64,000 bases of DNA from Thermoanaerobaculia bacterium. Lineage in GTDB: Bacteria > Acidobacteriota > Thermoanaerobaculia > Multivoradales > JBJKRB01. The stretch is from assembly GCA_046704885.1 (NCBI GenBank), contig JBJKRB010000150.1, positions 32,527 to 96,526 of the forward strand, written 5' to 3'. A model generated the notes under the pieces. The model was not told the DNA's origin. It made no database searches and saw nothing but the letters and a program-made list of their open reading frames with translations. The translations under genes and the position numbers were made by a program. Every line of letters begins with the position of its first letter. Positions within the stretch are counted from its first letter, which is position 1. Below, piece by piece: positions 1 to 14,650 of this stretch.

Positions 1-2
1 GG

Positions 3-1505
3 TCAGCTCCACGGGCTTGTCTCGAGCTCCAGGGTCGCCCGGATCCCGGGCGGATTGGACTGCTCGATCGGGATCGAAAAACGGTAGCGGCCCGGCCCGA
101 GCTTGACTCTCTTCGCTTCGGGCTCCGTCTGATTCGGACACTTGGAGTCGAAGCCATAGAGGAGCCTCCAACCTCCGCCCCTGAGCGGCACTGCCTCCAG
201 GTTCACCTTGTCGCGAAAGATGTAGCCGCCCTCGTAGTGATTCTTGGCGAACCACACCCCGTCGACCACGTACTCGGGCACCTGCACGCCGAGATCGAGC
301 GCGAACCCCAAGCTCTTGCGGCTCTCATCCACCCGCGCCGCCTTGGCCAGAAAGCTCGAAGCAAGATGCAACCGTCCTCCCGCCCCATCGCCTGACCCGC
401 CGACCAGGTCGTCATACCTGGCGAAGATGGCGGACTCCTCCGAGACCAGGCGACGGTGGAGGTCCCAGCGGGCGCCGCGCACGCGAGCCACGACCTCGAC
501 GTGGTACGACGCGCGCACCTGCTTGCCCTCTTCCTTCTGAGCCTTCACCTCCGGTGGCAGCGTGATCTCCTCCACCGCCAGGAAGGCATCGACGCGAACG
601 TCGCCAAAGAGGAAGCGGCGCAGGTTCTGGTAACCCTCCTCCGAGTTGACGATTCCGTACTGACCGGAATGAGCGCGGTGGACGAAAGCGCGCGGGCTGC
701 CCTTGGTGTAAGCGTTGGCGATTTGCACGAGGCCGTCGCTCATCGGACCCACCGCGACCCTGGCGAGACCGTAGTCGCGATGATCCGTACCGACCAGACA
801 GAACACCCGCTCGGGCGCGAACTTGCCGCCGAGGGCATTGACCGGCTGCTTCTTACCCAGCTTCAGGTACTCGCGCATCCGTTCCACGTTGAAGTTCTCG
901 CTGTTGTTGACGCGCAGAAACTCGGGAACGTTGCCCACCCAGCGAAAGTCGATCCCGCCGTGCGGCGTCGCATAGGTGAAGACCTTGTCGACACGCGGGT
1001 CGTCGGGGGAGATGTTCTGCAGCAGGCAACGGGCGATCAAGCCGCCCATCGAGTGCGCAACCAGGTAGACGCGAAAGCCGCTGTCACCCTGCGAGCCGTT
1101 CTCGGACGACGGACCACTTGACCCCACGAAGCGCATTTCCATGTCGTCGAGGAGCTTCTTCAAGCCGCGCGCGTAGTCTTCGATCTCGGGCCGCTTGCCA
1201 CTGCCCAGGTCCTCGGAGACCGGCTCGTAGTACCGGTAGATCCAGACGCTCTTCACCGGCGGCCTCGTGCCCTCCGGAATCTCGGCTCCATGCCGGTAGA
1301 CGTCCTGATACCCACCGTCCTTCATCAGGCGTACGAGGGGCGACTCGAAGATGTGGCGGGTGATGTCCTGAGTGTAGAGCTGCCGAATCTTGGTCGAGCC
1401 GAGATTGAAGCCCATGTAGGGATCGGAAACGGTGTCCTCGACCGCGGCCTGGGTTCCGGCGTAACCGCGGATGTAGACGATGGGAAAGTAGGGTCGCTTG
1501 AACAT
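3..1505 (-). CDS. alpha/beta-fold hydrolase (esterase/lipase, PGAP1-like) with C-terminal extension
   Basis: Nucleophile elbow AHSMGG and TYATPHGG motif. Start moved to MFKRPYFP (ATG 1505), which follows an AAGGAG RBS. Confidence 0.7.
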   Translation of the reverse strand: MFKRPYFPIVYIRGYAGTQAAVEDTVSDPYMGFNLGSTKIRQLYTQDITRHIFESPLVRLMKDGGYQDVYRHGAEIPEGTRPPVKSVWIYRYYEPVSEDLGSGKRPEIEDYARGLKKLLDDMEMRFVGSSGPSSENGSQGDSGFRVYLVAHSMGGLIARCLLQNISPDDPRVDKVFTYATPHGGIDFRWVGNVPEFLRVNNSENFNVERMREYLKLGKKQPVNALGGKFAPERVFCLVGTDHRDYGLARVAVGPMSDGLVQIANAYTKGSPRAFVHRAHSGQYGIVNSEEGYQNLRRFLFGDVRVDAFLAVEEITLPPEVKAQKEEGKQVRASYHVEVVARVRGARWDLHRRLVSEESAIFARYDDLVGGSGDGAGGRLHLASSFLAKAARVDESRKSLGFALDLGVQVPEYVVDGVWFAKNHYEGGYIFRDKVNLEAVPLRGGGWRLLYGFDSKCPNQTEPEAKRVKLGPGRYRFSIPIEQSNPPGIRATLELETSPWS

Positions 1506-1702
1506 CGGGTCTCCTTTCGACGCCTCGGCGACATTCGAACGAGCTGTTGGGGACCGAGGCGGGAAACCGCCAACAAGGGTGAGGCTCCATTCACTCTCGT
1601 TGCCGCGCAGTCCCGAGATCTGACAAGAAAGGGAGACACCTACAGCAAGCTCCAGGGGAGAGCCTGGAGCGCCGCGCCCGATCTCCATCGAGCGTAGAAG
1701 GC

Positions 1703-2680
1703 TCAGTCTTCGAAGGCCTGGGCGATCGAACGGTCGACGTCGAGCGCGGTCGCGACCGCGACGATTACCACCATTCCGGTCTTCTGTTGGACCTCGTCGC
1801 GAGCGCTCGGGTCCCCGGGATCGGTAACCACAATCGTGAGCACTCCCTGTTGAGCGCTCAGCGGAACGAATCTCAAACGTTCCATCATCTCCTTGGTCAC
1901 GATCGGGCGCAGACGAGAGTCCGGAACCTGCACCGAAAGATCGATGAACGGCACGTTGTACTGGATGGCGAGAGCGATGCCGATCATCTTATGCGTGGCG
2001 AAGCCGAGCTCGACGAGAATTTCGCCCAATCTTCTGCTTCGGAAGTGCTCCTGAAGGTCAAGAGCCTCCTCGAGCTCGACCCGGTTGATAAAACCTTGCT
2101 CAAGCAGGATCTCGCCGATCTTCCTGCTCTTCCACTTCTCCTGCAACGCCAGGCCCTTGGCGAGCTGCCCCGAGTCGATCTTGTTCTGTTGGATCAGGAT
2201 ATCGCCGAGCTTCTGGTCGCGAAGCCCACTCTGGTGCCGCAACGCCTCGGCCACCATTCGAGGAGTGACCATTCCTTCAGAGGTGAGAATCTCCCCCAGG
2301 CGCTGTACCGAAATCACCTCGCGAACCGCGTCGATCGGGAGAAAGACCCGTTCGACATTGGGGAGCTCGGTGGGAATGAGAAAGATTCCGTGCGGCGTGC
2401 CGACCGAGCTCTCCGTGATCCCCTGCAGAGTTTCGCCGTCGGTGAAGCGTACGGTCACGAGACGGGACGACGACTGCACCTTCACTTCATCCTCGGGGTG
2501 ACGCCGGCGCTCGATGAAGGCCAAAATCTTGACCTCGTTCAGTGGAATGGCCCTGACCTGCGCCGCCGTTCCCGCGCCTCCGGTCTGCACGTGGAAGACG
2601 GTCCGTGCGGGATTGAAGACCTCGAGCCGCCCGCTGAAGCGCTCACCGTCCCGCAAAGTGACCTCAACCTCCCGAGACAT
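1703..2680 (-). CDS. MshEN / GspE-PilB N-terminal repeat protein without ATPase domain; N-terminal DUF6982-like region
   Basis: Four [RK][LI]G[ED]IL...L..Q repeats (RLGEILTSEG, KLGDILIQQ, KIGEILLEQG, RLGEILVELG), then a T2SSE_N-like segment (YNVPFIDL...FVPL...DP). No Walker A motif. Confidence 0.75.
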   Translation of the reverse strand: MSREVEVTLRDGERFSGRLEVFNPARTVFHVQTGGAGTAAQVRAIPLNEVKILAFIERRRHPEDEVKVQSSSRLVTVRFTDGETLQGITESSVGTPHGIFLIPTELPNVERVFLPIDAVREVISVQRLGEILTSEGMVTPRMVAEALRHQSGLRDQKLGDILIQQNKIDSGQLAKGLALQEKWKSRKIGEILLEQGFINRVELEEALDLQEHFRSRRLGEILVELGFATHKMIGIALAIQYNVPFIDLSVQVPDSRLRPIVTKEMMERLRFVPLSAQQGVLTIVVTDPGDPSARDEVQQKTGMVVIVAVATALDVDRSIAQAFED

Positions 2681-2818
2681 CGCGTGGCCCTTCTTTGATC
2701 TGCCTTCGGTCAAGTCCTCTCCTCAGCGCGTCTTCCCGGCGAAGCAACGCCCCCCGTTCCGCTCGCGACGGCCACAAGCATTCTTGCATTCGTCCCAATG
2801 AAACTCAAAGTGTCGGGG

Positions 2819-3949
2819 TCACAATGAGCGAGTTCGACGCGCCGTAGCTGGATTCCCGGCGCGGGCCTCGGCCAACCGCCGCTTCGTCGTGCGCTCGATA
2901 GTGGGATCGGCGGCTTCCGCGGCGGCGTAGTGGCGGGCACTCTCGGCGTAGCGTCCGAGCTTGAAGTAGCAGAGCCCCAAGGCGTCCTGCGACCAAAGGC
3001 GGAAGAGCCGCTCGTCATGGGAGAGACCGGCGTCGAGATAGGTCTCCGCGTCGACCGCGGCCAGGGGCTCGAGAATGCTCGCGGCCTCGGAATAGCGCTC
3101 ATCCCGCACCAGGGCCTTAGCCCGCAGCCAGACCACCTCGGGCACGCCCGGGAAGAGCTCCCAGGCTTCGTCGAGAATCTGCACGTCTGACGCGCCCGAC
3201 ATCTCGAGAAACGTGAGAAGCGCGACGAAGGGGAGGCAGTCCACGTTCGTCGCGACCTGGCGCGAGCGAACGACGGCGATCCCTTTGCGCCAAGCGGCTT
3301 CGGCCTCGTCGCCCCGTCCGAGCCCCGCCAGCGTCATCCCCAGGTGGTACCAGCTGTAGACGTGATCGGGCTCGCTCGCGAGCCGCGCTTCGAGGAGAGG
3401 CAGGTTCCTCGGGTGCTTGTGGCTGATGTCTCCCTCGTAGCCCAGATGCTCGAGCTCGAGGTTGCTCTCGCCGATCCGCAGGTGATCGCTCGCCAGCACC
3501 TCGCGCAGGGCCGGAAGGTGGGACTCGTGGATCACGCCGCGGAAACGCAGCCGAGGATCGTTATGAAAGAGCCGATGCTCGCGAAAGCGGGTAAAGCCGG
3601 TGATCGGGCGGAAGAGGACGGTGGCCGCCGCGAGCCGCGGATCCCCGAGCAACGCTTCGAGCGCAGACCGATCGGCGCAGCGCGCCCGCTCATCGGCATC
3701 GATGTAGAGGATCCAGGCACCGGTGGCGAGGTCGAGGGCGCGGTTGCGCGCCGCGGCGAAGTCGCCTTGCCAAGGGAAGAGGTCGAGCTTGGCACCGTGC
3801 TCGCGCGCGATCTCGCGGCTCCGGTCGGAGGAGCCCGTGTCGACCACGACCACCTCGTCCGCGATGCCGCGAAGCGAGGCGAGACAACCGGCGAGGAATC
3901 GCTCTTCGTCCCGCACGATCATGGCGGCGGAGAGGAGCGGCTGAGGCAT
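2819..3949 (-). CDS. glycosyltransferase family 2 with C-terminal TPR repeats (SunS-like architecture)
   Basis: MIVRDEE, VVVDTGSSD, DFAAARN, IDADE, FRGVIHE and HLGY motifs; TPR helices (SWYHLGMTL, LGLCYFKLGRY). Confidence 0.9.
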   Translation of the reverse strand: MPQPLLSAAMIVRDEERFLAGCLASLRGIADEVVVVDTGSSDRSREIAREHGAKLDLFPWQGDFAAARNRALDLATGAWILYIDADERARCADRSALEALLGDPRLAAATVLFRPITGFTRFREHRLFHNDPRLRFRGVIHESHLPALREVLASDHLRIGESNLELEHLGYEGDISHKHPRNLPLLEARLASEPDHVYSWYHLGMTLAGLGRGDEAEAAWRKGIAVVRSRQVATNVDCLPFVALLTFLEMSGASDVQILDEAWELFPGVPEVVWLRAKALVRDERYSEAASILEPLAAVDAETYLDAGLSHDERLFRLWSQDALGLCYFKLGRYAESARHYAAAEAADPTIERTTKRRLAEARAGNPATARRTRSL

Positions 3950-3968
3950 GGAAGCTTTGGAGAAGAGG

Positions 3969-4352
3969 CTACGGAGAAGCGGACCGTCGCCGGCTCAAAT
4001 ACCAGGCGAAACCGGCGAGAAAGAGGATGAGCGCGATCGCTCCCACCGGCGAGAGAGTGGGGATCTCCGTCACCGGAATCAAGACCGTCGAGCTGACGGA
4101 GGCGTGGTTCCCCAAGTGGGAGACAACAAACGCATACTGGGGCAAAGGTTCCGCTCCGGGGTTCTTGAACACCAACTCCACGGCATTGTGCAGGACGGGT
4201 TCCGAGATCTCCACCGTGACCGTGTTTGTGATCGTCTTGGTGACGAACGCAGACGCTCCGCTCGAGATCGAGAGAACGACGAAGACGACGGCAAGAACCG
4301 TAAGGATCCGTACTCTGACGGCACGTCTAGGAGAGCTGGACATCACCCGCAT
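3969..4352 (-). CDS. small secreted protein with IPTL-CTERM sorting signal
   Basis: N-terminal basic + hydrophobic Sec signal ending ASA. C-terminal EIPTLSPVGAIALILFLAGFAWYLSRRR = IPTL motif, TM helix, basic tail. Confidence 0.8.
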   Translation of the reverse strand: MRVMSSSPRRAVRVRILTVLAVVFVVLSISSGASAFVTKTITNTVTVEISEPVLHNAVELVFKNPGAEPLPQYAFVVSHLGNHASVSSTVLIPVTEIPTLSPVGAIALILFLAGFAWYLSRRRSASP

Positions 4353-4354
4353 CT

Positions 4355-4852
4355 CTAGTCGACCGTGACCACGATCTGGACGACGCTGGTGGCGCCCACG
4401 ACCATCGAGATGAGTGAGCCACTCACCACACCGCCTTGGCTACCCACCGGCGGAGTACTGAGAGTAAAAGCCGGACCCGAAACGTTGCTCGCCGAAACGA
4501 ACTTCGTTCCAACGGGCAGAGCATCCTGAAAAACCACGCCTAAAGCCGGATCGGGGCCACAGTTGTAGATGGTGATCGTGTAGGTCAGGTCTTGCCCTGA
4601 GGCGACCGGCTCGGGGCTCGCCGTCTTGTTGATGACCACATTCGCGATATTCGAACCCACTCCGAGGTTCGAGGGACAGAGGTATTGGATGTTCGATCCC
4701 TGGGCGCGGGCCGGAGCGACGAACAGGTTGTCGAGAGAGAAAGAGGCGACGAGCGGTGCCGCGTACGCGGCGCCGAGTAGTAGGCGGCGAAAGAACTCTC
4801 GCCGCGACGAATCGATCTTCTCCAAGTGACGGTCAAGCTCTCGTGGGGACAC
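4355..4852 (-). CDS. Tat-signal protein with Ser-Asn repeat segment and DUF11 (Ig-like) domain; candidate modification substrate
   Basis: SRREFF twin-arginine motif and ARA cleavage site. DUF11 signature INKTASPEPVASGQDLTYTITIYNCGPDPA.GVVFQDALP.GT.FVS. AAGGAGG RBS before GTG. Confidence 0.8.
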   Translation of the reverse strand: MSPRELDRHLEKIDSSRREFFRRLLLGAAYAAPLVASFSLDNLFVAPARAQGSNIQYLCPSNLGVGSNIANVVINKTASPEPVASGQDLTYTITIYNCGPDPALGVVFQDALPVGTKFVSASNVSGPAFTLSTPPVGSQGGVVSGSLISMVVGATSVVQIVVTVD

Positions 4853-4908
4853 TCAGCCCTCCTTCTTTCGCTCAGTCTTGCCTTGAGCTGTCTTCGTGCA
4901 ACCGACCC

Positions 4909-4937
4909 ATTGTAGCCGCCCAGTCCCCCCCTCGCAA
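4909..4937 (-). promoter_or_regulatory. sigma70-type promoter for the Tat-DUF11 / IPTL-CTERM / GT2 operon
   Basis: Minus strand reads TTGCGA (4937-4932), 17-nt spacer, TACAAT (4914-4909); the -10 box lies about 57 nt upstream of the 4852 start. Confidence 0.55.
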
Positions 4938-4987
4938 GCAATCGCGGACAACCGCTTGCCGGCTGGACGGTAGACATCCCGCTATCA

Positions 4988-5764
4988 TTGTGGATGAAAG
5001 ACTCAGTTGCGATCATGACCTATCTCCGCCGCGGCACGCTCGACAGCTCCATCTGGCGGACCGTGCTTCATGAGTACGCCGCGCTCCCCCTCCGTTTCGA
5101 GCCCGGCGAGGTCGCCCTCGATATCGGATGCCACGTGGGTAGCTTCGCCCTCTTCGCCGCCGAGCGCGGCGCCAGGGTCCTCGCCTTCGAGGCCAACCGG
5201 GAGAACTATGCCCTCGCCTGCATCAACACTCGAGACTATGAGCAGGTGGAGATCCACCTTTCCGCAGTCTGGCGCTCCGACCGGCCTTCGGGGGAGCTCA
5301 TCTTCACCCCGCATCCGGATGGACAAAATACCGGGGGCGGCTCGGTTCTCTTTCGCCACCTCGACGACCATCGCGCCTACCTCGAGCTGGGCAATCTAGC
5401 CGCCTCATTGGGCGATCCTTCGCATCCGATCCTTCTCACTTCCCACCCGGTGCCGTCAGTCGGTCTCGACGCGATCCTCTCGGATATCGACAGAGAGGTC
5501 CGTTACCTCAAGATCGACGTCGAAGGGGCCGAATTCCCCGTTCTCGCGACGGCCACGATGCTGCGGAGGATCGAGACGATCGGTGGGGAGTACCACGAGC
5601 TCAACGATGCCCAGATGCGACGCCTGCCGGAGGAGGCTAGGGTGGGTGAGCAGCTCTACGACCGCCGCTTCTTGCTTGCCCTCCTGGAAGCCGCGGGTTT
5701 CGACGTCGACCTCCATCCGACCGCCCCGAACCAGGGCCTCTTCGTGGCTCAACGTCGATCTTGA
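4988..5764 (+). CDS. FkbM family SAM-dependent methyltransferase
   Basis: LDIGCHVGSF (motif I), VLAFEAN, YLKIDVEGAEF, GEYH. Exact start uncertain. Confidence 0.9.
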   Translation: MWMKDSVAIMTYLRRGTLDSSIWRTVLHEYAALPLRFEPGEVALDIGCHVGSFALFAAERGARVLAFEANRENYALACINTRDYEQVEIHLSAVWRSDRPSGELIFTPHPDGQNTGGGSVLFRHLDDHRAYLELGNLAASLGDPSHPILLTSHPVPSVGLDAILSDIDREVRYLKIDVEGAEFPVLATATMLRRIETIGGEYHELNDAQMRRLPEEARVGEQLYDRRFLLALLEAAGFDVDLHPTAPNQGLFVAQRRS

Positions 5765-6940
5765 TCACTCCGAGCAGCGCTCGAGCTCGGCGCGCAGGAG
5801 CCGGCCGACCACCTCCGGCGCGTAGTCGGCGCGCAGGCGCTCGGCGAGCAGGGAGCTCTGCTCCCGCGCCTCGTCCCGATGCTCGAAAACCCAGCGCATC
5901 AAGGTCCGCGCGGCCTCCGCGTCGGCCCTGGCCCATGAGGCTTCATCGCTCAGCTCCATCCAGCCGTCGGGCCGCGAGCGGGACGTCGCTTCGAGCTCGT
6001 AGGGAACGAGGAGAGGATAGTCCTCTCTGAGGTAATCGAGCGGCCCGGACCAACCGGTCACGACCACTGGATTTTCGGCAAGCACCGCTTCGAAGCAGCC
6101 CAACCCCCACCCCTCACCATGCGATAGCGAGACGAAGCAGTCGCCACGCTGGTGCAGTGCGGCGATCTCCGCTCGCGACAGCTCTCTCGTCAACAGACAG
6201 ACCCTGGCCGCCTTCCGATAGTCGGCAAGGATGCGCGCCATGCTCCACCAGGTCTGTCCCTCTTCCGGGGCTGTAGCCCCTGGCGATCCGGCGGCGGCGT
6301 ACGCCGCGATCTGATCCGTGGTGCCAGTCTTGACCACGAGGACGACGGGGTCTTTCTCGCTGAAAGCCTCGAGGTAGGCTCGGATCGTCTCCTCGAGCGC
6401 CTTGCGTGTCGTCCACGAACCGATCGTGTAGAAGACATAGTCGCCGGGGTCAACCGAGGCCAGATCGAGCTCACCTCCTTCGACGGGGCGCGGGGCGCAG
6501 TGGGGGACGACGCCGATACGAGCGGTCACGCCGCTCGCGGCGAAGGCGCGCTGGTTGAAGGTCGACGGGACCAACACGCGCTCGAACCGATTGAGATTGC
6601 TCACCCAGACTTCCGGTAGCCGGTCCGCCTCCCAGGTCGTGTAGACGGCCGCCGCAACCGAAGGCTCCACAAGCCGCCAGGGAAGTTGCCAGGCAGGCGG
6701 AACGTGGACGAGGAGGCGATCGTAATCGAGGGGCCGGTTGCAGAGATCGTCATGCTCGCCGCCCGAACGGCTTCCCAGAAATGGGGCGATTCCGAAGCTC
6801 GGGCCCCAGGCCTCGCTTCCCTCGACCATCGGCGTCCAGGTAATGGGCACCCCGAGGCGGCGAAGGGCGGAGAGATAGGCGAGGCCGGCCTCTCCGTATC
6901 CCGTACAGGGCATCATCGTGACCATCTTCAAGCCGCGCAC
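5765..6940 (-). CDS. glycosyltransferase family 4 (GT-B)
   Basis: TGYG, YTTWEADRLP, VLVPSTFN, RKA and SHGEGWGLGCFEA (E-X7-E) motifs. Confidence 0.9.
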   Translation of the reverse strand: MRGLKMVTMMPCTGYGEAGLAYLSALRRLGVPITWTPMVEGSEAWGPSFGIAPFLGSRSGGEHDDLCNRPLDYDRLLVHVPPAWQLPWRLVEPSVAAAVYTTWEADRLPEVWVSNLNRFERVLVPSTFNQRAFAASGVTARIGVVPHCAPRPVEGGELDLASVDPGDYVFYTIGSWTTRKALEETIRAYLEAFSEKDPVVLVVKTGTTDQIAAYAAAGSPGATAPEEGQTWWSMARILADYRKAARVCLLTRELSRAEIAALHQRGDCFVSLSHGEGWGLGCFEAVLAENPVVVTGWSGPLDYLREDYPLLVPYELEATSRSRPDGWMELSDEASWARADAEAARTLMRWVFEHRDEAREQSSLLAERLRADYAPEVVGRLLRAELERCSE

Positions 6941-7013
6941 TCTCGTCGCCCCTCTCCGTTCGTGGTCAACTTACTTAATGTCCAGTGCCATCTGAGCTCT
7001 GGCCTATTATCTC

Positions 7014-8264
7014 TTGGTGACTTGTGATCGCCTCCCCGCGCTGTCCATGGTCTCGTACGCTGAGCCGACCGGCTACGGCCTCTCCACGCTGGCCTATCTC
7101 GACGCCCTGATCAGTGCCGGGGCCTCGGTGACCTGGGTGCCCTTACTTCCCGAAATAGATCGTTGCGAGCCGCTCGCAAGATCCCAGTTTGCAGCGGACT
7201 CGGATCTAGCCCAACGCCTGTTCGCCGATCCTGGGGGAAAAGCCTTCGGACGCGCCCTAACGGCATGCGGCACCGAGCTGGAACCGGATCTGACGTTCCT
7301 CCACATCCTTCCCGAGCTCTGGCCTTTATGGCGGCACCCACTGAAGCCTACGATCGGTTACACGGCTTGGGAGTATGACCGTCTGCAGCTCCGCTGGACG
7401 CCGCTCCTGAATGCGGTCGATCGGGTCCTCGTACCGAGCGAGCACTGCCGCCGCGCCTGCCTGGCTAGCGGCATCACCACGGCGGTGGAGGTACTGCCGC
7501 ATCTGCCCCTCTCCCGCAAGGTCGCGAGATCGCCAGACCGCGAAGAAGGCCGCAGGCGCTTTGGCATTCCGGAAGGGCACTTCGCCTTCTACTCGATCGA
7601 GGAGGGCAGACCACGAAAGGCGATCGAGGACACGGTCGAAGCCTACCTGGAGGCGTTCTCCGCGCATGATTCGGTCGTTCTCGTCCTCAAAACAACCAAG
7701 ACGATAGAGCTCGGGAGCGGCGGTCCAGGAGCTCACGCTTTGACCGAGGCTCGCATCCAGAGAATCCTGGCCCGCCACAGGTCCCCCGCTCGAATCGAGC
7801 TCATCGACCAGATCTTGCCGCGGCGGGAGATCGAGCTCCTGCATGCGGCGGGCGACTGCTACGTAACGCTTTCTCGAGGTGAGGGTTGGGGATTGAGCAT
7901 CTTCGAGGCGGCACGCCGGGAAAAGCCGGTGGTGGCCACCGGCTGGGGCGGGCAGCTCGACTACTTGACCCCGGAGACGGCGTTCCTCGTCGACTTCGCC
8001 CTCGAGCCAATTGCGCGAACGATCCCGCCCATGGTCTGGGCGGTCGCCGATCGAGCACAGGCGGCCCGGCTTCTCCAGCGTGTCATCGAGCATCCGCAAG
8101 AAGCCGCCGCGCGAGGGCGCCAGGCGAGCGAAGCGATCGCCCGTGACTTTGCCTACGACAGGATCGTGGAGCGCCTTCTCGCCATCTTGATCGAAACGGG
8201 TTCGGCCGGCCTCAAGCGCTCGCAGATCATCGGGAGTCACCCGAGATCGAGCGGCGGAAGATAA
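7014..8264 (+). CDS. glycosyltransferase family 4 (GT-B), paralog of 5765-6940
   Basis: TGYG, YTAWEYDRL, VLVPS, RKA and SRGEGWGLSIFEA motifs. Start may be the ATG at 7047. Confidence 0.9.
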   Translation: MVTCDRLPALSMVSYAEPTGYGLSTLAYLDALISAGASVTWVPLLPEIDRCEPLARSQFAADSDLAQRLFADPGGKAFGRALTACGTELEPDLTFLHILPELWPLWRHPLKPTIGYTAWEYDRLQLRWTPLLNAVDRVLVPSEHCRRACLASGITTAVEVLPHLPLSRKVARSPDREEGRRRFGIPEGHFAFYSIEEGRPRKAIEDTVEAYLEAFSAHDSVVLVLKTTKTIELGSGGPGAHALTEARIQRILARHRSPARIELIDQILPRREIELLHAAGDCYVTLSRGEGWGLSIFEAARREKPVVATGWGGQLDYLTPETAFLVDFALEPIARTIPPMVWAVADRAQAARLLQRVIEHPQEAAARGRQASEAIARDFAYDRIVERLLAILIETGSAGLKRSQIIGSHPRSSGGR

Positions 8265-9076
8265 GGACGAAGCAGCCTGTTCAAGGCGGTGTCGCGCGCG
8301 CGGATCGACTCGATCGTGAAGTCGGCACCGCTCACGCGGCTGAAGTCGCGCCGCCACTCGCTCCACCACAGGTGACTCCAGAGATGCAGCGTGAAGCTCT
8401 CCGAGAGATCGAGCTCTTCCGGCGAGAAGAGGCGTTCCAGACCCTCGGCGCTACAGAGCACCGGAAAGAACGAGCGTTCGGGCTCGATCCGAACCTCGTC
8501 CGGGAGCTCGCCACTGAGACTCTCGGCGAGGAACCCAGAGTGGTTGCTCCAGGTACCGTCGAGCTCGCTTCCCATTCGTTGCCTCCAGACGGAAGCGAAG
8601 GCGGAGCCCGGGGCCGCGAGCATCAGCGCGTTGCACAGCGAGGGACGAAGCTCGCCGCTTCGCTCGTCGCGCACCGGGCCCTCGCGGCCGATGACGAACG
8701 GAGCGGCAAGTATCGCCTTGGGAAACGGCCGCAGGAACACCGTGTCGATGTCGGCGTAGACGCCACCGTGCTCGATCAGCGCGTCGAGGCGCACGAAGTC
8801 GGCGTGGTGGGCATAACGGTAGACTTCCGGCACGAGTCCGTCCCCGTAGTCGGCGGCCAGCACCTCGGCCGAGAGCCTGACCGGAATGAGCGTTAGATGA
8901 GGCCGAGCGAGCTCCCAGAAGATGCCGTAGGGGAGATGGAGATAGTGGAAGTAGATCGTCTCGGGCCGTAGGACCCGGCGGCACGACTCGATCGCTATGT
9001 AGTGCAGGAGATGAAACGGCTCGGTTTGAGCCTTGAGGCCGAAGACGAAATGGACGATCGGCGGAATTCGCCGCAT
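8237..9076 (-). CDS. glycosyltransferase family 32 (DXD sugar-binding, OCH1-like)
   Basis: IPPIVHFVF, ADFVRLDALIEHGGVYADID, CNALMLA and LHLWS motifs. Confidence 0.9.
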   Translation of the reverse strand: MRRIPPIVHFVFGLKAQTEPFHLLHYIAIESCRRVLRPETIYFHYLHLPYGIFWELARPHLTLIPVRLSAEVLAADYGDGLVPEVYRYAHHADFVRLDALIEHGGVYADIDTVFLRPFPKAILAAPFVIGREGPVRDERSGELRPSLCNALMLAAPGSAFASVWRQRMGSELDGTWSNHSGFLAESLSGELPDEVRIEPERSFFPVLCSAEGLERLFSPEELDLSESFTLHLWSHLWWSEWRRDFSRVSGADFTIESIRARDTALNRLLRPYLPPLDLG

Positions 9077-10393
9077 GAGGACCCGAAGAAGGAGCGCCGC
9101 GCAGCTTCCGCTGCCGACGCGGACGGCAAGATCCTAGCATCGGGACGGCGGGTCCTCTTCGTCGCGCCGATCGCTCCCGCTCCGACTGGCAACGGATTGG
9201 CCATGCGCGCCGGGGTTGCGCTTGACGCTCTCGCCGCTGAATCCCAGGTCGATCTGGTGATACTCCCCGTCGCGGGTCCCTTTCCGGAGGGCGCCGCGCT
9301 CGACTGGCTGAGAGAGCGCGCGCGGCAGGTGGATATCCTTCCCCTGCCGAGCCTCCAGGACAGCACCGCGGCCTGGTTGGGCGATCCGGCGAGCAGGGAG
9401 TTGCTCCAGGGGCTCGCGCCGCTCCCGCGCCTGGCGCGCTTTGCGCACCCGGGGTTGCTCGCACCCCACCTCGATACGGGCGAGCCTCGCTTCGATCTCG
9501 TCTACGTCCTTCGCCTCTATCTCGCGCCACTGGTCGCGCCGGGTGTCGCCCGGCAAGAGCGGCCACGCCTCGTCCTCGACGCCGACGACGACGACGCTTC
9601 GACCCTCGCCGCGCTCGCCGCGCTCGAAGAGGCAACGGGAAACCTGGACAGCGCTCGCAACCTTCGTGAAGAGAGCGATGCCTTTGCCCGTCTCGCGTCG
9701 CGCTGCCTCCCCTGGTTCGACAGCGTGCTGGCGGCAAGCGAGATCGACGCTCGGAAGCTCGAGGAGCGTTCTCGAAGGCCGGTGGACATTCTTCCCAACG
9801 CGGTGCCAATACCTCCCGAGGGGCGGCGGGCGGTGACAACCGGACCGTTTCGAATTGTCTTTGTCGGCAACCTCACGTACCTCCCCAACCGCGTTGCCGC
9901 AGAGCGGCTCGCCCGCTCGATTCTTCCCCGGGCACGAGCAAGGCTCGCTCGCGACGTCGAGCTCGATCTGGTCGGCCCGAACGGCCCCGAGATCGACCAG
10001 CTCGGGGACGAGGCCGGGGTCAGCGTGCGGGGCGCGGTTCCCGACCTCGCCCCCTTCTACCGCGCCGCCGACTGCTTCGTCGCGCCGCTCGCGGCGGGGG
10101 GAGGAAGCCGGATCAAGCTGCTCGAGGCATTCTCATACCGGCTTCCCGTGGTGGCCACGTCGAAGGCGGCGGCGGGCCTCGAGGTCGAAGCTGGCAGGCA
10201 CCTGCTTTTGGCCGAGTCGGACGCGGAGATCAGCGAAGCGATCGCTCGCTTCGGCGATGACGAAGAGCTCGGGGTAGAGATCGCCAGCGAAGCCTTCGCC
10301 TTCGTCACGCGTTACCACGACCGCACCGAGATCGTAGCCGCGCTGCCGCGAATGATCGGTCTCCAACGCAACTGCGAGGAGAGCCGCGCTTGA
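9050..10393 (+). CDS. glycosyltransferase family 4
   Basis: VLFVAP..P.PTGNG.AMR, ILPNAV, FVGNLTYLPN, GGGSRIKLLEAF...PVVAT. Start uncertain. Confidence 0.88.
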   Translation: MDDRRNSPHEDPKKERRAASAADADGKILASGRRVLFVAPIAPAPTGNGLAMRAGVALDALAAESQVDLVILPVAGPFPEGAALDWLRERARQVDILPLPSLQDSTAAWLGDPASRELLQGLAPLPRLARFAHPGLLAPHLDTGEPRFDLVYVLRLYLAPLVAPGVARQERPRLVLDADDDDASTLAALAALEEATGNLDSARNLREESDAFARLASRCLPWFDSVLAASEIDARKLEERSRRPVDILPNAVPIPPEGRRAVTTGPFRIVFVGNLTYLPNRVAAERLARSILPRARARLARDVELDLVGPNGPEIDQLGDEAGVSVRGAVPDLAPFYRAADCFVAPLAAGGGSRIKLLEAFSYRLPVVATSKAAAGLEVEAGRHLLLAESDAEISEAIARFGDDEELGVEIASEAFAFVTRYHDRTEIVAALPRMIGLQRNCEESRA

Positions 10394-11106
10394 GCCCGTC
10401 ACCCAGCGAGAGCGTGAAGACGATCGTTCTCGATCTCTCGATCTGCCGGATTGAGATCGCGGTCCAGGACCCCACGCTCCAGCACAGACTGGCGGCGCTG
10501 AGCAGCGCCCCTGAAGAAGCGAGCCAGTCAAAGCGCACTCTGCGTTACCGGATTCGCGGCTCGGGTCCCCTCGAGATCCACGAGGAACGAGATCGATTGG
10601 CGCAGGTCGATGGAGTGGAGACAGCCGTCGCCATGGTCCTCGAGCGCGGCCTGCGACGAGCGGCCGAGCTTCTCGCCCTAAGCGCCTGGGCTCCCTTCAC
10701 GGGCAGGATCGAACGCGAAGAGACCCGCCTCTTCGCTCTGATCGAACCGGCGAGCCATGGGCCCGATCTCCTTCCAGCGCGCCAGCTCTGGGTCCGCGGC
10801 GAGGAGCTCCTCGCCATGGACGTCTCCACCTCGGCGCTGACCTGTAGAGTGCTCGATCTGCGCTCAATCGCGGGCGTTGTGGTCGTGGGTCCAGCGGCCG
10901 GCCACGACCAATCCAAAGACCCTCAGCCCGCCGAGCTCATCGCACATCTTCTGCGAAGCTCTCCGCGCCTGGGGGCGCCCCGTTCCGCCCTCATTCGCGC
11001 CGCGAGCCGCCTGGCATCGCTCCCATCGCTCGTGAGCGCCGAGGGCTCGATCGATGACGCCCTGGATAGACTCCTCTCGCCCTCGCCGCCTGACGGGGCG
11101 ATGTAA
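10390..11106 (+). CDS. hypothetical protein; resembles a degenerate HprK-related kinase (no P-loop)
   Basis: Overlaps the upstream GT4 stop by 4 nt and directly precedes PqqD. The N-half layout recalls the HprK-related kinase N-domain, but GxxGxGK[ST] is absent. Confidence 0.5.
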   Translation: MSPSPSESVKTIVLDLSICRIEIAVQDPTLQHRLAALSSAPEEASQSKRTLRYRIRGSGPLEIHEERDRLAQVDGVETAVAMVLERGLRRAAELLALSAWAPFTGRIEREETRLFALIEPASHGPDLLPARQLWVRGEELLAMDVSTSALTCRVLDLRSIAGVVVVGPAAGHDQSKDPQPAELIAHLLRSSPRLGAPRSALIRAASRLASLPSLVSAEGSIDDALDRLLSPSPPDGAM

Positions 11107-11130
11107 TATCGTCCTCTCCCGAGCATAGCC

Positions 11131-11388
11131 ATGCCGCCGATCAAGAAAGAAGGACTGGAGCTGAGCGAGGTCAAGGACGGGTTTATCGTCTACGACCCAG
11201 AGAACGAGAGGGTCCATTACTTGAACGCGACGGCAAGCGTCATTTTCGAGCTCTGCGACGGCAAGCACGGGGAGAAAGAGATCGCCGCGTTCGTGGCCAC
11301 CACGTTTGGCTTGAGCGAGCCACCGCTCGCCGACGTCCGCCAGACCCTCGAGCAGCTCACCTCCGAGGGCGTGCTGCTCGACTCCTGA
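11131..11388 (+). CDS. PqqD family peptide chaperone (RiPP recognition element)
   Basis: 85 aa with the typical pattern EVKDGFIVYD...VHYLNATASVIFELCDG...IA...DV...LEQL..EGVL. No other pqq genes nearby. Confidence 0.92.
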   Translation: MPPIKKEGLELSEVKDGFIVYDPENERVHYLNATASVIFELCDGKHGEKEIAAFVATTFGLSEPPLADVRQTLEQLTSEGVLLDS

Positions 11389-11409
11389 GGAGGAAGGAGC
11401 TCCCAGCTC

Positions 11410-12087
11410 TCAGGCCGCCACCGATTGCCGCGATCCAGCTCGCGGCCGGCGGTGGCGATCGATCCAGTAGCCCCAGACAACGAGTAGCCACATCGCCTCT
11501 CCCGCCCAGCCGATCGCCTTGACGCTCGGCGGCGGCGGTCCGAAGAGGTTGACCAAGTAAACGGCGAGCAGGAAGCCGACCAGGGCCCAGAGGCTCCAGC
11601 TGCCGATCCGGTCACGCGGCGTCGTGGCGGCGACATAGACCGCGAGACCGACGGCGAAGATCGAGAGCTCGACGATCAGGGTCCCCGCGACCGAGTTCCA
11701 CAAGCCGAAGCCGAAGCGCAGGGGCGAGCCCCAAATGAGCGGCAGGTCGGGACGATGAACGAGGAGATCGAGAAACCAGTGGCTCGTCACTAGAACCCCC
11801 GCCACCACCGCCGGGGCCACCTTGCGCTTGGCCCACAAAACCAGGAGAGCGATCAGGACCGACCAGCAAACAGCGGCGGCCAGGCTGTGACTGATCGGGT
11901 AATGGTAGAAGTCGAGAGGAGTCAGCCGCGTGATGCCGGGCACAATCCTCACCTTCTCGACCCCCAAGAGGATGAGCGTCGGCCAGAGCAGGTCGAGAAA
12001 CTGGGCCGCTAGAAAGAGCGTACCGAGCGACAGGGATGGCGCGAATCGCTTGCCGGCAAAGCCCACTCCGAAGTGCCCGATGAACAT
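11410..12087 (-). CDS. membrane-bound metal-dependent hydrolase family protein
   Basis: MFIGH, FLDLLWP, SHSL and SHWFLDLLVH motifs; several TM helices. Confidence 0.75.
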   Translation of the reverse strand: MFIGHFGVGFAGKRFAPSLSLGTLFLAAQFLDLLWPTLILLGVEKVRIVPGITRLTPLDFYHYPISHSLAAAVCWSVLIALLVLWAKRKVAPAVVAGVLVTSHWFLDLLVHRPDLPLIWGSPLRFGFGLWNSVAGTLIVELSIFAVGLAVYVAATTPRDRIGSWSLWALVGFLLAVYLVNLFGPPPPSVKAIGWAGEAMWLLVVWGYWIDRHRRPRAGSRQSVAA

Positions 12088-12097
12088 CGCGCTCTCC

Positions 12098-12583
12098 CTA
12101 TAGAAGCTTGATGAAACGAAGGGTCTCGGGGACGTAGCCCAAGTGGTCATAGAGCGCCAAGGCGCGATGATTGGTGGCGAAGACGTTGAGGCTCAAGCGG
12201 TCGAACTCGTGCTGCCGTCCCCACTCCTCGGCGGCGCGCATCAGGGCGCTCCCCACGCCCTGTCCTTCGGCGTCTTCGCTCACCACCAGCATTCCCACGT
12301 GCCCGTGACGGGAGCCGGTGAAATAGTCCTCCACCGTTTCGAGGTAGACGAAGCCGCGCACCGCTCCGCCTTCGCCTTCGGCGACCAGCAGCCAAGTTCC
12401 CTCCGGCCCCTCCGTGAAATAGCGCTCGAGGGTCCGCCGCTCCCCGGCGATGATCTCTTCCTCGGGGCGCCAGGGCGGTACCTCGAAGCTCGCCAAGCGG
12501 GCCGCCTCGCGCAAGAGGACCTCCTTATCCTCTGGCTGCGCCGAGCGAACCTTCAGAGGCTCAGGCACGCCTTCTCCTCGCAA
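12098..12583 (-). CDS. GNAT family N-acetyltransferase
   Basis: Motif A LVVSEDAEGQGVGSALM; N.RALALY..LGY. Confidence 0.9.
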   Translation of the reverse strand: MRGEGVPEPLKVRSAQPEDKEVLLREAARLASFEVPPWRPEEEIIAGERRTLERYFTEGPEGTWLLVAEGEGGAVRGFVYLETVEDYFTGSRHGHVGMLVVSEDAEGQGVGSALMRAAEEWGRQHEFDRLSLNVFATNHRALALYDHLGYVPETLRFIKLL

Positions 12584-12604
12584 GGTTTCTAATTGCGCTC
12601 CGCT

Positions 12605-13975
12605 TCATAGCCGCTCCAGCCGGGCGGTGAAGTGCCTGAGGTGCTGACTCTCGTCGACTATGCGAAAACCGCGGAGCTCCGGGCTGCGCTTCGCTACCTC
12701 GCCCGCGACCTCGACGACGTAGTCGACGTGGCTCTGGGTATAGACCCGGCGCGGCACCGCCAGGCGAAGGAGCTCCAAGGGGGCGATTCGCTCCTCCCCC
12801 GTCTTCGGATCCTTTCCACCGAACATCAAGGTACCGATCTCGACCCCTCGCACTCCTCCCAGCTCGTAGAAGGCGCAGGCCAAGGCTTGGCCGGGGAGCT
12901 CGCGGGGTGGAATATGACGAAGAAAGCTGCCCGCATCTAGATAGACCGCGTGCCCTCCGGGCGGCTGGATGATGGGAATCCCGTGGCGGACCAGACCCTC
13001 GCCGAGGTAGCGGACCGAAGCCAGGCGATAGCGCAGATAGTCCTCATCGACCACCTCCTTGAGCCCTACCGCGATGGCTTCGAGATCGCGACCGGCGAGG
13101 CCGCCGTAGGTCGGAAAGCCCTCGGTCAGGATCAGGAGCTCTTGCTCGCTGCGCGCCAGGGCGTCGTCGTTGCCGGCGAGAAAGCCCCCAATGTTCGCCA
13201 GTCCGTCCTTCTTGGCGCTGAAGGTGGCGCCGTCGGCCAGAGAGAACATCTCCTGCGCGATCGATTCGACCGACCGCTCGCTGTAACCCTTCTCGCGCAG
13301 CTTGATGAAGAAGGCGTTCTCGGCGAATCGGCAGGCGTCAAGATAGAAGGGTACTTTCTGCCGGTGACAGATCTCGCTCGCCAGGCGCAAGTTGGCCATC
13401 GCCGCCGGCTGTCCACCGCCGGAGTTGTTGGTTATGGTGACGATGACGCAAGCGACCGAGGATCCCCGTTCGTCGAGCTGGCGCTCTAGCGCTTCGAGGT
13501 CGATGTTCCCTTTGAACGGGTGCTCGAGGCCGGGGTGGAGCGCCTCCGGCACCGGAATGTCGACCGCTTCGCCCCCGGCCGCTTCGACGTTGGCGCGAGT
13601 CGTATCGAAATGCGTGTTCGACAGTACGACCTTGCCCGCGACCCCGAGGGAAGCGAAGAGGATCCGTTCCGCCGCGCGCCCCTGATGCGTGGGAATGATG
13701 TGCTTGAAGCCGGTGAGCTCCCGCACTCGTGCCTCGAAGCGGAACCAGGACTCGGCGCCGGCGTACGACTCGTCGCCGCGCATGATGCCGGCCCACTGCT
13801 CGGAGGACATGGCGCCCGTGCCCGAATCAGTCAGGAGGTCGATCAGGATATGTCGCGCCGGGATGCGAAAAAGGTTCCAATCGGCCTGGCGGAGAAACTC
13901 CAGGCGTTCCGCGGCCGTCGTCATGTGCAAGGGCTCGACCGATTTGATGCGAAACGGCTCGATGATCGTCTTCAT
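12605..13975 (-). CDS. tnaA: tryptophanase (PLP beta-eliminating lyase)
   Basis: EPFRIKSVE, DLLTDSGT, THQGR, SAKKD (PLP lysine), GFPTYGGL. C-terminal LRHFTA has His as in tryptophanase, not Phe as in tyrosine phenol-lyase. Confidence 0.88.
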   Translation of the reverse strand: MKTIIEPFRIKSVEPLHMTTAAERLEFLRQADWNLFRIPARHILIDLLTDSGTGAMSSEQWAGIMRGDESYAGAESWFRFEARVRELTGFKHIIPTHQGRAAERILFASLGVAGKVVLSNTHFDTTRANVEAAGGEAVDIPVPEALHPGLEHPFKGNIDLEALERQLDERGSSVACVIVTITNNSGGGQPAAMANLRLASEICHRQKVPFYLDACRFAENAFFIKLREKGYSERSVESIAQEMFSLADGATFSAKKDGLANIGGFLAGNDDALARSEQELLILTEGFPTYGGLAGRDLEAIAVGLKEVVDEDYLRYRLASVRYLGEGLVRHGIPIIQPPGGHAVYLDAGSFLRHIPPRELPGQALACAFYELGGVRGVEIGTLMFGGKDPKTGEERIAPLELLRLAVPRRVYTQSHVDYVVEVAGEVAKRSPELRGFRIVDESQHLRHFTARLERL

Positions 13976-13978
13976 GTC

Positions 13979-14650
13979 TTAGGGAGTCTCCTCCTCGAGA
14001 AGGATAGTGGTGACAGCACGCGCGAAAAAGCGTATCAGCGTTTCTCCCGCCTCTTCGGCGCTCGCGCCGAAGCTCACCACGCCGTCTTCATGGCCTCCCA
14101 TGGCGAGGATGCGGAGATCGGGGAGCGGCGAATAGCGATAGAGGCGCGCGACCTCGTCCGCCATTCCCGGCGACCCGTAGGGAATCTCGGGAGCGGAGGT
14201 CGGGAGAAGGAGCGCCGCGCGGCGGCGCCAGACCTCGGGGCTGTGGACATGGAACACCCATCCGATGCTCGCATCGAGACGATAGACGGCATCGTGGGTG
14301 AGCGATTCGGAGGAAGGCGAAGCGAGACCGACGCTCCTAACCCGATTGGCCGCCGCATCGGACGCCTCGACGATGCAGAAGTCGGCGAGGGTCAGGCCCT
14401 CCTTGCCCCCGGTCTGCGACCCGGTGATGAGAAAGCGGGGAGCGCCTCCGTCGTCCTCGCCCTCCAGACGAGCGCTCAAGTTGCCGAAGGCAAAGCCCTC
14501 GTAGCGTCCAGGGTCGCGACCCACCATCCCCAGCCGGCGCAAGATCGCGCGCCAGGCCATGAGCCCCGCCGCCAGCGTGTCGACTCCTTCTGACCCGAGG
14601 CTCGCGCTACGGTGGTCGGAGTGAAACTTGATGACACCCTCGCCGCTCAC
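13979..14650 (-). CDS. class II aldolase/adducin family protein
   Basis: GNLSAR, FLITGS, SSESLTH, FHVHS and GHEDG metal-binding motifs. Confidence 0.85.
   Translation of the reverse strand: MSGEGVIKFHSDHRSASLGSEGVDTLAAGLMAWRAILRRLGMVGRDPGRYEGFAFGNLSARLEGEDDGGAPRFLITGSQTGGKEGLTLADFCIVEASDAAANRVRSVGLASPSSESLTHDAVYRLDASIGWVFHVHSPEVWRRRAALLLPTSAPEIPYGSPGMADEVARLYRYSPLPDLRILAMGGHEDGVVSFGASAEEAGETLIRFFARAVTTILLEEETP

Follow-up and report, generated by a model that had tools for sequence, protein, structure and literature searches.

Pathways for ribosomal peptides normally need a leader protease and an exporter of their own. The described system closest to the one analyzed here is that of the linear polyphosphorylated peptides (LPP) of Bacillota, for which a recent report (Nat Commun 2026) outlines a discrete recognition element, a YxxP leader, an HprK-like kinase, a nucleoside triphosphate (NTP) transferase, a leader peptidase of the signal peptidase I (SpI) type and an exporter (PMC13381572). 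The LPP precursors presented there have 35-200 amino acids (aa) with a conserved N-terminus and a variable C-terminus, and their leader is bound as an added strand (PMC13381572). In our study we analyzed a stretch of 64,000 nucleotides, hereafter the window, from a Thermoanaerobaculia bacterium (contig JBJKRB010000150.1). A gene on its minus strand (4355..4852) encodes a 165-aa precursor that consists of a 50-residue leader or signal and a DUF11 domain, as seen from the open reading frame (ORF) and its translation. We propose, with a probability of about 0.6, that the first 50 residues form a leader whose two functions overlap, namely as a docking tag for a PqqD-family protein and as an export signal of the twin-arginine (Tat) type. 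Housekeeping Tat and signal peptidase I seem to take the place of both leader protease and exporter, which would be possible because a single stretch is recognition tag and export signal in one.

Similar to the LPP system as outlined in that report, the window holds a discrete PqqD-like element, a YxxPx[V/L] motif and a locus rich in sugar genes, and leader removal is probably of the SpI type here as well. The two systems also have in common precursors in the range of 35-200 aa whose N-terminus is constant while the C-terminus varies. Moreover, related loci (L045, L046 and L038) carry an HprK-like P-loop ORF as the described LPP clusters do, and an NTP transferase is also found among these relatives. 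The three loci gave weak matches to TIGR04352/TIGR04355 (17-24 bits, cut-offs 200), and L046 also matched PF14907. In contrast, the LPP leader as given in the report, YxxPxVLxHQxIxFETxxS, has neither an arginine pair nor a hydrophobic region, and the LPP clusters described there encode an SpI-like peptidase and an MsbA-like exporter for themselves. Pfam and NCBIfam scans of the 14 ORFs in window positions 1-12600 revealed no dedicated peptidase, exporter or transporter, nor was one found in the L046 operon, which is consistent with the claim of the first-pass annotation of this DNA that the cluster encodes no protease of its own. The window cluster also differs from the reported LPP clusters in having no recognisable HprK-related kinase or NTP transferase, in its GT2-TPR glycosyltransferase as the conserved enzyme, and in its origin from Acidobacteriota. 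The window PqqD reached 30.9 bits with TIGR04353, the model of the LPP/HPr-rel-A recognition element, and thus stayed just under the cut-off of 35.

Lasso peptides offer a second comparison. The window PqqD shares the PqqD fold with lasso B1 proteins, and the nearest solved relative of its profile is TfuB1 (6JX3_B, E 0.0046). Like a lasso leader, the window leader presents an aromatic residue, a proline at +3 and an aliphatic residue at +5, with predicted docking on strand beta3. The window motif Y30-A-A-P33-L-V35 agrees with the lasso motif [Y/W]xxPx[L/V/I/F/A] as defined in PMC13381572, whereas the wide family described below is only partly lasso-type. However, no lasso B2 protease and no C lactam synthetase/cyclase was found among the 14 ORFs, the PqqD scored 23.8 bits with the lasso B1 model NF033530 (cut-off 70), and, unlike a lasso, the window product would be a linear, exported protein. 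The label 'lasso-type', which the first-pass annotation had attached to the motif, therefore applies to the YxxPx[LV] pattern and its presumed mode of action and not to family membership, as B2 and C are absent and the wide family mostly has Phe. A canonical lasso-type B1/B2 pair lies elsewhere in the same genome (contig C50:2989-3568, L013), where a separate PqqD (52.3 bits) is immediately followed by Transglut_core3 (57.5 bits).

The leader, residues 1-50, corresponds exactly to 4703-4852 of the minus strand. It reads MSPRELDRHLEKIDSSRREFFRRLLLGAAYAAPLVASFSLDNLFVAPARA, then Q51. An n-region that is helical and acidic comes first, followed by the RR motif, by an h-region holding the docking motif, and by AxA. 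The twin-arginine motif S16-R-R-E-F-F21 (4790..4807, minus strand; family consensus S-R-R-x-F-L-K) lies at the boundary of n- and h-region and agrees with the pattern S/T-R-R-x-F-L-K; R17, R18 and F20 are invariant. The predicted PqqD-docking segment G27-L40 (GAAYAAPLVASFSL; 4733..4774, minus strand), delimited by conservation and by a complex model, includes Y30-x-x-P33-x-V35. A48-R-A50 (4703..4711, minus strand) is a predicted type I signal peptidase site with the cut before Q51; A50 is invariant in seven relatives, and across 35 short family members both A48 and A50 are at least 90% conserved. All features on which the proposal of a dual-purpose leader had been built, SRREFF at 16-21, Y30, P33, V35, D41-N42 and ARA|Q51, were present in the translation of 4355-4852 (MSPRELDRHLEKIDSSRREFFRRLLLGAAYAAPLVASFSLDNLFVAPARAQ, then GSN...).

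Loss of Y30 and P33 among homologues had been set beforehand as a refuting test. Both residues are kept: in seven full-length relatives (46-75% identity) R17, R18, F20, G27, A29, Y30, A32, P33, S37, F38 and A50 are invariant, and across 36 relatives P33 and F38 are invariant and Y30 is at least 90% conserved, while the wide family retains an aromatic residue and the Pro. Signal peptides are usually less conserved than the mature part. Among 32 DUF11-type relatives, mean pairwise identity was 0.69 for residues 17-40 versus 0.44 for the mature part, and the leader was the more conserved of the two in 98.8% of 496 pairs. Judged from these alignments, a YxxPx[LV] match alone may be chance, but its conservation could not be. 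A six-frame regex search for RR...Y..P in the organism's own genome gave 61 matches, the others all inside non-signal frames, and no other signal-like N-terminus with this pattern was found. No Pfam or NCBIfam family covers the leader, which gave only weak matches to Tat models at E<=1.

The predicted leader recognition element is a discrete PqqD-family protein of 85 aa (11131..11388, plus strand; PF05402, 42.7 bits). It shares 43-48% identity (E 1e-21 to 1e-23) with the PqqDs beside homologous precursors, whereas other PqqDs of those same genomes scored E>1, and by sequence comparison it is the orthologue of the PqqD genes near homologous precursors. Three relatives lie on genome contigs, and all three have a PqqD match upstream on the same contig and strand, likewise one metagenome contig group; in other Acidobacteriota the PqqD is located 35-2000 nt upstream of the homologous gene. 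In total, a PqqD domain was found within 6.3 kb in 13 of 14 distinct loci with a leader match at E<=3e-7, although related genomes are not independent samples; L018, L019 and L020, 98-99.6% identical, were counted as one locus. The sole locus without PqqD, L017, is a contig of 2,251 nt. The distance between leader and PqqD is 35-83 nt in L002, L004 and L018, 386 nt in L033, 887-936 nt in L032, L045 and L046, 1.9-2.6 kb in L003, L034 and L047-49, and 6.3 kb in the window, and these genomes have only 3-5 PqqD matches each. Weaker leader matches that resemble ordinary Tat substrates (L028, L029, L031 and L039) showed no PqqD in their 3-kb loci (+/-1.5 kb viewed). The expected linkage of homologues to PqqD genes was thus borne out by these 13 loci and by the orthology of the PqqDs.

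Modelling of the PqqD with leader residues 1-55 yielded the strand docking that the first-pass annotation had predicted, with a score of 0.61 as compared to 0.01 for the best of three controls. Of 80 solved complexes 58 reached the mark that this model passed, as did 2 of 110 mismatched pairs; these counts apply only roughly here, as the model was built on our own shallow alignments. The runs agreed in at least 96% of contacts, with a partner pLDDT of at least 70. In the modelled interface leader residues 28-41 lie antiparallel on the beta3 strand of PqqD (residues 25-38). The lowest-error pairs are PqqD 29-35 / leader 33-37, with antiparallel pairs 30-36, 31-35 and 32-34, and the interface falls on the invariant PqqD residues R27, H29, Y30, L31, N32, T34 and A35 (R-x-H-Y-L-N-x-T-A).

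Sequence searches place the window gene in a much larger leader family, of which it is the member with DUF11 as cargo. A leader-only profile matched 847 representative proteins at E<=1e-3, of which 113 reached E<=1e-10, always at the N-terminus; the tail of the 847 matches probably holds ordinary Tat signals. The best 150 of the 847 (E<=4e-10) are 46-429 aa long, many of them 54-70 aa, with the consensus ...VDPSRRxFLKxLxxGTAFAAPxVASFSMDGLxxxxAxA. The arginine pair is RR in 128 of the 151 members examined, KR in 20 and KK in 2. The pattern x-x-x-P-x-x-x-S-F occurs in 132, where the first motif position is F (100), Y (17) or W (4) and position +5 is V (66), I (31), M (17) or L (12). A protein-atlas search returned unnamed clusters of ~60 aa, a word-index search with the leader profile retrieved the DUF11 subfamily only (27 proteins), and tblastn of one short member against 72,556 plasmids gave no match. 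Among the Acidobacteriota genomes sampled the leader is rare, with 8 of 401 genomes at E<=1e-3 and, with the wider profile, 5 of 401 at E<=1e-4; it occurs in 6 of 301 genomes of the order to which genome G012 belongs. Each good match from these searches had a PqqD domain in its vicinity.

Natural fusions join the two partners in one ORF. Among 527 candidates, 377 proteins carry a PqqD-leader fusion at E<=1e-3, and the stand-alone leader profile matches 117 of the 120 best fusions listed. Fusions of PqqD, SRR...A-x-P-x-V...AxA and a Cys-rich or collagen-like secreted-type domain occur in G062, in G214 and in the organism's own genome. The last of these is a 385-aa ORF (contig C131, L015:1344-2498, plus strand) with an N-terminal PqqD, then DPSRRAVLRHLVTAAVAIPAIVSISL...AFAQ and collagen-like G-P-T repeats (PF01391, 3e-31). 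The loci L038:1411-1920 and L030:1354-1854 (both minus strand) encode proteins of ~170 aa with PqqD, SRR-leader, AxA and a Cys-rich tail, some of this kind being named 'PqqD family protein [Pyrinomonadaceae]', and the L038 fusion gene adjoins the HprK-like P-loop ORF.

As conserved partner enzyme, the cluster has a cytoplasmic GT2-TPR glycosyltransferase (2819..3949, minus strand; PF00535 and TPR), whose gene begins 19 nt after the second gene of the operon. Its nearest solved relatives in the PDB are GmaR (1.1e-23), SunS 7MSN (2.4e-15) and a SunS/ThuS-type enzyme (3.1e-13); with TIGR04195, the SunS family model, it scored 60.1 bits, far under the cut-off of 350. Orthologues with 43-56% identity follow directly downstream of the leader gene or operon in L002, L003, L018/19, L032, L045 and L046, and in all seven strong-leader loci that reach at least 2 kb downstream the GT2-TPR gene adjoins the precursor. 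An Asn 3-4 residues past AxA is at least 90% conserved in the 35 short members, and N-x-S/T/C is enriched in the cores (224 observed versus 123 +/- 8.9 in shuffles), falling within the first ten core residues in 82 of 151. The residue at N+2 is S, T or C in 71 of 115 parsed cores, and Ser precedes the Asn in 44 of 115. Both the conserved Asn and the enriched N-x-S/T/C suggest a site of modification, and the likely target lies just past the cleavage site. The acceptor may be N54 by N-glycosylation, or an O- or S-linkage may form at the S/T/C in +2 or at S53. In the DUF11-type relatives C59 and C98 (window numbering) are invariant or nearly so, C59 within S-N-(x)-L-C just past the cleavage site and C98 within Y-N-C-G-P; the two could form a disulfide, or N-x-C could be a modification site. 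The window protein has a 3-residue insertion (I-Q-Y) between N54 and L58-C59 compared to these relatives.

According to the mechanism that we propose, the PqqD would bind G27-L40, a [Y/F/W]-A-x-P-x-[V/I/L]-x-S-F-S-x-D/G-L segment, in the cytoplasm as an antiparallel strand on beta3, in the same manner as [Y/W]xxP leaders are bound by the recognition elements of lasso and LPP pathways. Binding would present the start of the mature part, near the conserved S53-N54, to the GmaR/SunS-like GT2-TPR, and the cluster's GT4, GT32-like and FkbM enzymes may attach further sugars and methyl groups. The docking segment would at the same time be the h-region of the twin-arginine-type signal (SRREFF ... ARA|Q). 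As the docking site overlaps the h-region, binding and translocation would be mutually exclusive. After release, the leader would take the folded, modified DUF11 domain through Tat, and housekeeping signal peptidase I would then remove it. If Tat and this peptidase suffice, no dedicated leader protease or exporter would be needed. The organism's own genome encodes TatC (235 bits), two TatA/B and two type I signal peptidases of the S26 family. On the computational level, conservation, linkage, the complex model and the presence of this machinery support the earlier suggestion that one leader serves docking and export, with signal peptidase I in place of a dedicated protease.

Several observations weigh against this proposal. 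The aromatic position is mostly Phe in the wide family and Val/Ile in the PqqD fusions and is thus not strictly the [Y/W] of lasso leaders, and the window core, S53-N54-I-Q, has none of the residues S/T/C at +2, for which the family is enriched. The window PqqD lies 6.3 kb off on the opposite strand, the adjacency being seen in relatives, and gene context is known only from Acidobacteriota genomes and a few metagenome contigs. The alignments behind the complex model had only 5 rows (PqqD) and 8 rows (leader). Besides, complexes of recognition elements with leaders have already been solved, so the score may reflect likeness to these rather than binding of this pair. AlphaFold2 (AF2) draws the leader as a helix in the precursor alone, and in a natural PqqD-leader fusion (111 sequences) the leader appears as an undocked, low-confidence helix (pLDDT 44-51). 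We do not use the fusions as evidence on docking in cis, as the undocked AF2 helix neither supports nor excludes binding. The window protein gave no match to the curated Tat models TIGR01409 or PF10518 at E<=0.01. Among the 35 short members, 12 match TIGR01409 and 3 match PF10518 at E<=1, and one tabulated short member reached 17.3 bits with PF10518, under the cut-off of 22.7. Finally, the hydropathy of the h-region (1.95 +/- 0.27) overlaps that of neighbouring Sec signals (1.8-3.1); the ranges do not separate, and we discarded hydropathy as a means to tell Tat from Sec.

The last points also favour an alternative in which PqqD does bind the leader but the RR and hydrophobic segment serves as a signal of the Sec type or as a membrane anchor that is cleaved off, with the arginines serving the positive-inside rule or PqqD binding. 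We regard this as unlikely, although it merits serious consideration. The curated Tat models remain under threshold and the hydropathy is compatible with Sec, KR replaces RR in 20 of 151 members, and many members have cores of only 5-15 residues, an unusual cargo for Tat. In the 377 fusions, moreover, the segment stands ~100 residues from the N-terminus behind a folded PqqD, and the AF2 helix looks like a membrane span. On the other hand, the motif follows the textbook consensus S-R-R-x-F-L-K with F and L/K conserved, the leader has a length of ~50 residues, and R49 is located in the c-region of the window protein. The cargo in the window is a domain that folds stably in the AF2 model and would be modified in the cytoplasm.

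TorD, DmsD and NapD are small cytoplasmic proteins that bind twin-arginine signals and delay export until maturation by cofactor insertion. The PqqD of the window could be a Tat-signal chaperone of this manner only, holding the signal until the protein has folded or met a partner, and the glycosyltransferases could build a separate polysaccharide. The predicted docking site is indeed the signal's own h-region, the cluster resembles a polysaccharide locus, with GT4 matches to the PEP-CTERM-associated models stp1/stp2, and a c-di-GMP-binding MshEN protein adjoins it. We nevertheless consider this explanation improbable. The GT2-TPR gene is kept right beside the precursor even where the cargo has 11 residues and the sugar genes differ, and solved GT2-TPR relatives glycosylate proteins or peptides. 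Similarly, the conserved Asn and the excess of N-x-S/T/C just past the cleavage site speak for a modification site, and the HprK-like kinase and NTP transferase added in relatives equal the paeninodin/LPP tailoring set, as far as that set is described in PMC13381572. In the dual leader that we favour, PqqD would have a comparable holding role to TorD, DmsD and NapD, whose folds are unrelated. In the literature that we searched, no PqqD-fold protein is described as a Tat proofreading chaperone.

The possibility that an ordinary Tat-secreted DUF11 protein merely sits in a glycan locus, with the YxxP match and the PqqD unrelated, draws on the many DUF11 proteins among secreted or surface proteins, on the shortness of YxxPx[LV] and on the four glycosyltransferase genes between precursor and PqqD, but is very improbable in view of a PqqD that recurs in 13 of 14 loci with differing cargo and neighbours and is missing from the 3-kb loci of weak matches that resemble ordinary Tat substrates, and of the PqqD orthology, the fusions, the higher conservation of the leader and a complex model with clean controls.

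Other systems with cytoplasmic modification can be compared as well. Glycocins have double-glycine leaders and ABC/C39 exporters and are not known to use a recognition element. Their SunS/ThuS enzymes and the flagellin O-GlcNAc transferase GmaR resemble the window enzyme in combining GT2 with TPR and in glycosylating a ribosomal peptide or protein in the cytoplasm. Export of lanthipeptides through an engineered Tat route has reportedly been achieved in one earlier study. For bufferins and other MNIO-modified peptides, the Sec signal was reported to be dispensable for modification (PMC11626156, PMC12452194). As presented in these papers, they share with the window system a cytoplasmic modification with a partner containing a recognition element, followed by general export and cleavage; they differ in that the Sec signal does not double as the recognition leader and in their enzymes, MNIO and DUF2063. 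A 2025 survey lists recognition elements fused to PF00535 glycosyltransferases, and the parts of its text that we consulted do not mention Tat (PMC12710340). Our full-text literature searches, whose scope excluded supplementary data, returned no natural Tat signal tied to a pathway that depends on a recognition element.

If our proposal is true, the locus represents a natural way to export folded proteins and peptides that have been glycosylated in the cytoplasm. The proposal also suggests that a gate by which modification precedes export is built into the system, and that the PqqD fold has a new role. The leader family, for which Pfam and NCBIfam offer no model, lends itself to genome mining. 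The leader is present in at least 113 sequence clusters, and 377 proteins have a fused PqqD. More tentatively, and at somewhat less than even odds, these could represent a class of ribosomal products that is widespread but undescribed, ranges from peptides of 11 residues to folded domains, and shares a leader acting as Tat signal and PqqD docking tag. PqqD would then be a chaperone for Tat proofreading and would cover the h-region until the addition of glycosyl, phosphoryl, methyl or glutamyl groups beside the cleavage site is complete, whereupon general Tat and signal peptidase I would take the place of a pathway-specific exporter and protease. Such a class would also provide the HPr-rel-A-type pairs of PqqD and kinase genes with their missing substrate.

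The gene content around the leader varies among the relatives. Those of the DUF11 type share the order FkbM, PqqD, leader-DUF11 gene (1-2 copies), second secreted protein, GT2-TPR (53-56% identity) and GT4. Precursors of 61-66 aa in G012, G544 and G493 are flanked on one side by PqqD together with an HprK-like P-loop ORF and on the other by a GT2-TPR orthologue (43-53% identity), after which G493 also has an NTP_transf_5 gene. A compact operon of this kind (L046:7577-12685, minus strand) consists of GT4, PqqD, the HprK-like P-loop ORF, a 66-aa precursor with the core VGSNFSQQPPG, GT2-TPR and NTP_transf_5. Large Thr/Pro-rich leader proteins with a PqqD gene ~2.1 kb away occur in G584, G532 and G626; at L047:7702-10191 (minus strand), L048:9833-11134 and L049:9835-11142 (both plus strand), the same leader precedes long Thr/Pro-rich linkers and a conserved C-terminal domain, again with PqqD ~2.1 kb off. 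In G402 a TTL-PqqD-PGA_cap protein is found 2.6 kb from an RR...AAYAAP protein. The corresponding locus L034 encodes a 961-aa protein (11317-14199, minus strand) composed of a tubulin-tyrosine-ligase-like ATP-grasp domain, an internal PqqD and PGA_cap, and at that distance a 114-aa protein starting RDRREFLKQLAGAAYAAPLF; this could be a version of the scheme in which the peptide is glutamylated. In G321 a PqqD-TPR-methyltransferase fusion adjoins an RR protein, and at L033:9902-11603 (plus strand) an RR protein with (GQGK)n repeats and no aromatic-x-x-Pro is followed by such a fusion.

DUF11 matches of the window precursor cover residues 72-164 (PF01345, 3.5e-13, 50.3 bits, cut-off 24.6 in the Pfam scan), and TIGR01451 matched as well (1.8e-15, 56.7 bits, cut-off 24 in the NCBIfam scan). 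Therefore, the product is a 165-aa protein and not a short peptide. The AF2 model (36 sequences) shows residues 70-165 as a complete beta-sandwich with a pLDDT of 93-98, and the domain is accordingly predicted to fold alone, which would suit Tat. A DUF11 domain split over two ORFs, suggested by the Pfam match to positions 2-84 of 114, was dropped because of this complete sandwich. DUF11 proteins are common among secreted or surface proteins. Upstream of the GTG start at 4852, we read a Shine-Dalgarno sequence AGGAGG (4858..4863, minus strand) at a distance of 5 nt and a sigma70-like promoter TTGCGA-17-TACAAT (4909..4937, minus strand), the latter as a consensus match only; the scan for sigma70-like elements gave one match as compared to a mean of 0.3 in shuffles.

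The second gene of the operon (3969..4352, minus strand) starts 2 nt past the precursor stop and encodes 127 aa with an ordinary signal peptide and an IPTL-CTERM-like tail, IPTLSPVGAIALILFLAGFAWYLSRRR, which scored 20.1 bits with TIGR04174 (IPTL-CTERM; cut-off 20.5). A second secreted protein is found at the same position in L002, L003, L004 and L018, the L003 equivalent with VPALSP.... Divergent from the precursor lies an FkbM-family methyltransferase gene (4988..5764, plus strand; PF05050, TIGR01444), which has orthologues of 44-47% identity in L003 and L018-20. A block of four glycosyltransferase genes (5765..10393) then separates precursor and PqqD in this genome. By their Pfam/NCBIfam matches these are GT4 (5765..6940, minus strand), GT4 (7014..8264, plus strand), Gly_transf_sug (8237..9076, minus strand) and a third GT4, GT4c (9002..10393, plus strand), which is conserved beside PqqD in L018/19, L045 and L046 at 37-41% identity. 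Directly upstream of PqqD is an ORF of 238 aa (10390..11106, plus strand) with no Pfam/NCBIfam match and no homologue in the related loci. We considered it as a degenerate HprK-like kinase and rejected this, as it matched no family and showed no BLASTP similarity to the L046 ORF (E 8.9). Just downstream of the operon, a 336-aa protein (1703-2713, minus strand) combines MshEN-type c-di-GMP-binding motifs (NF053729, 2.4e-23) with DUF6982, and this neighbour hints at c-di-GMP control of the locus.

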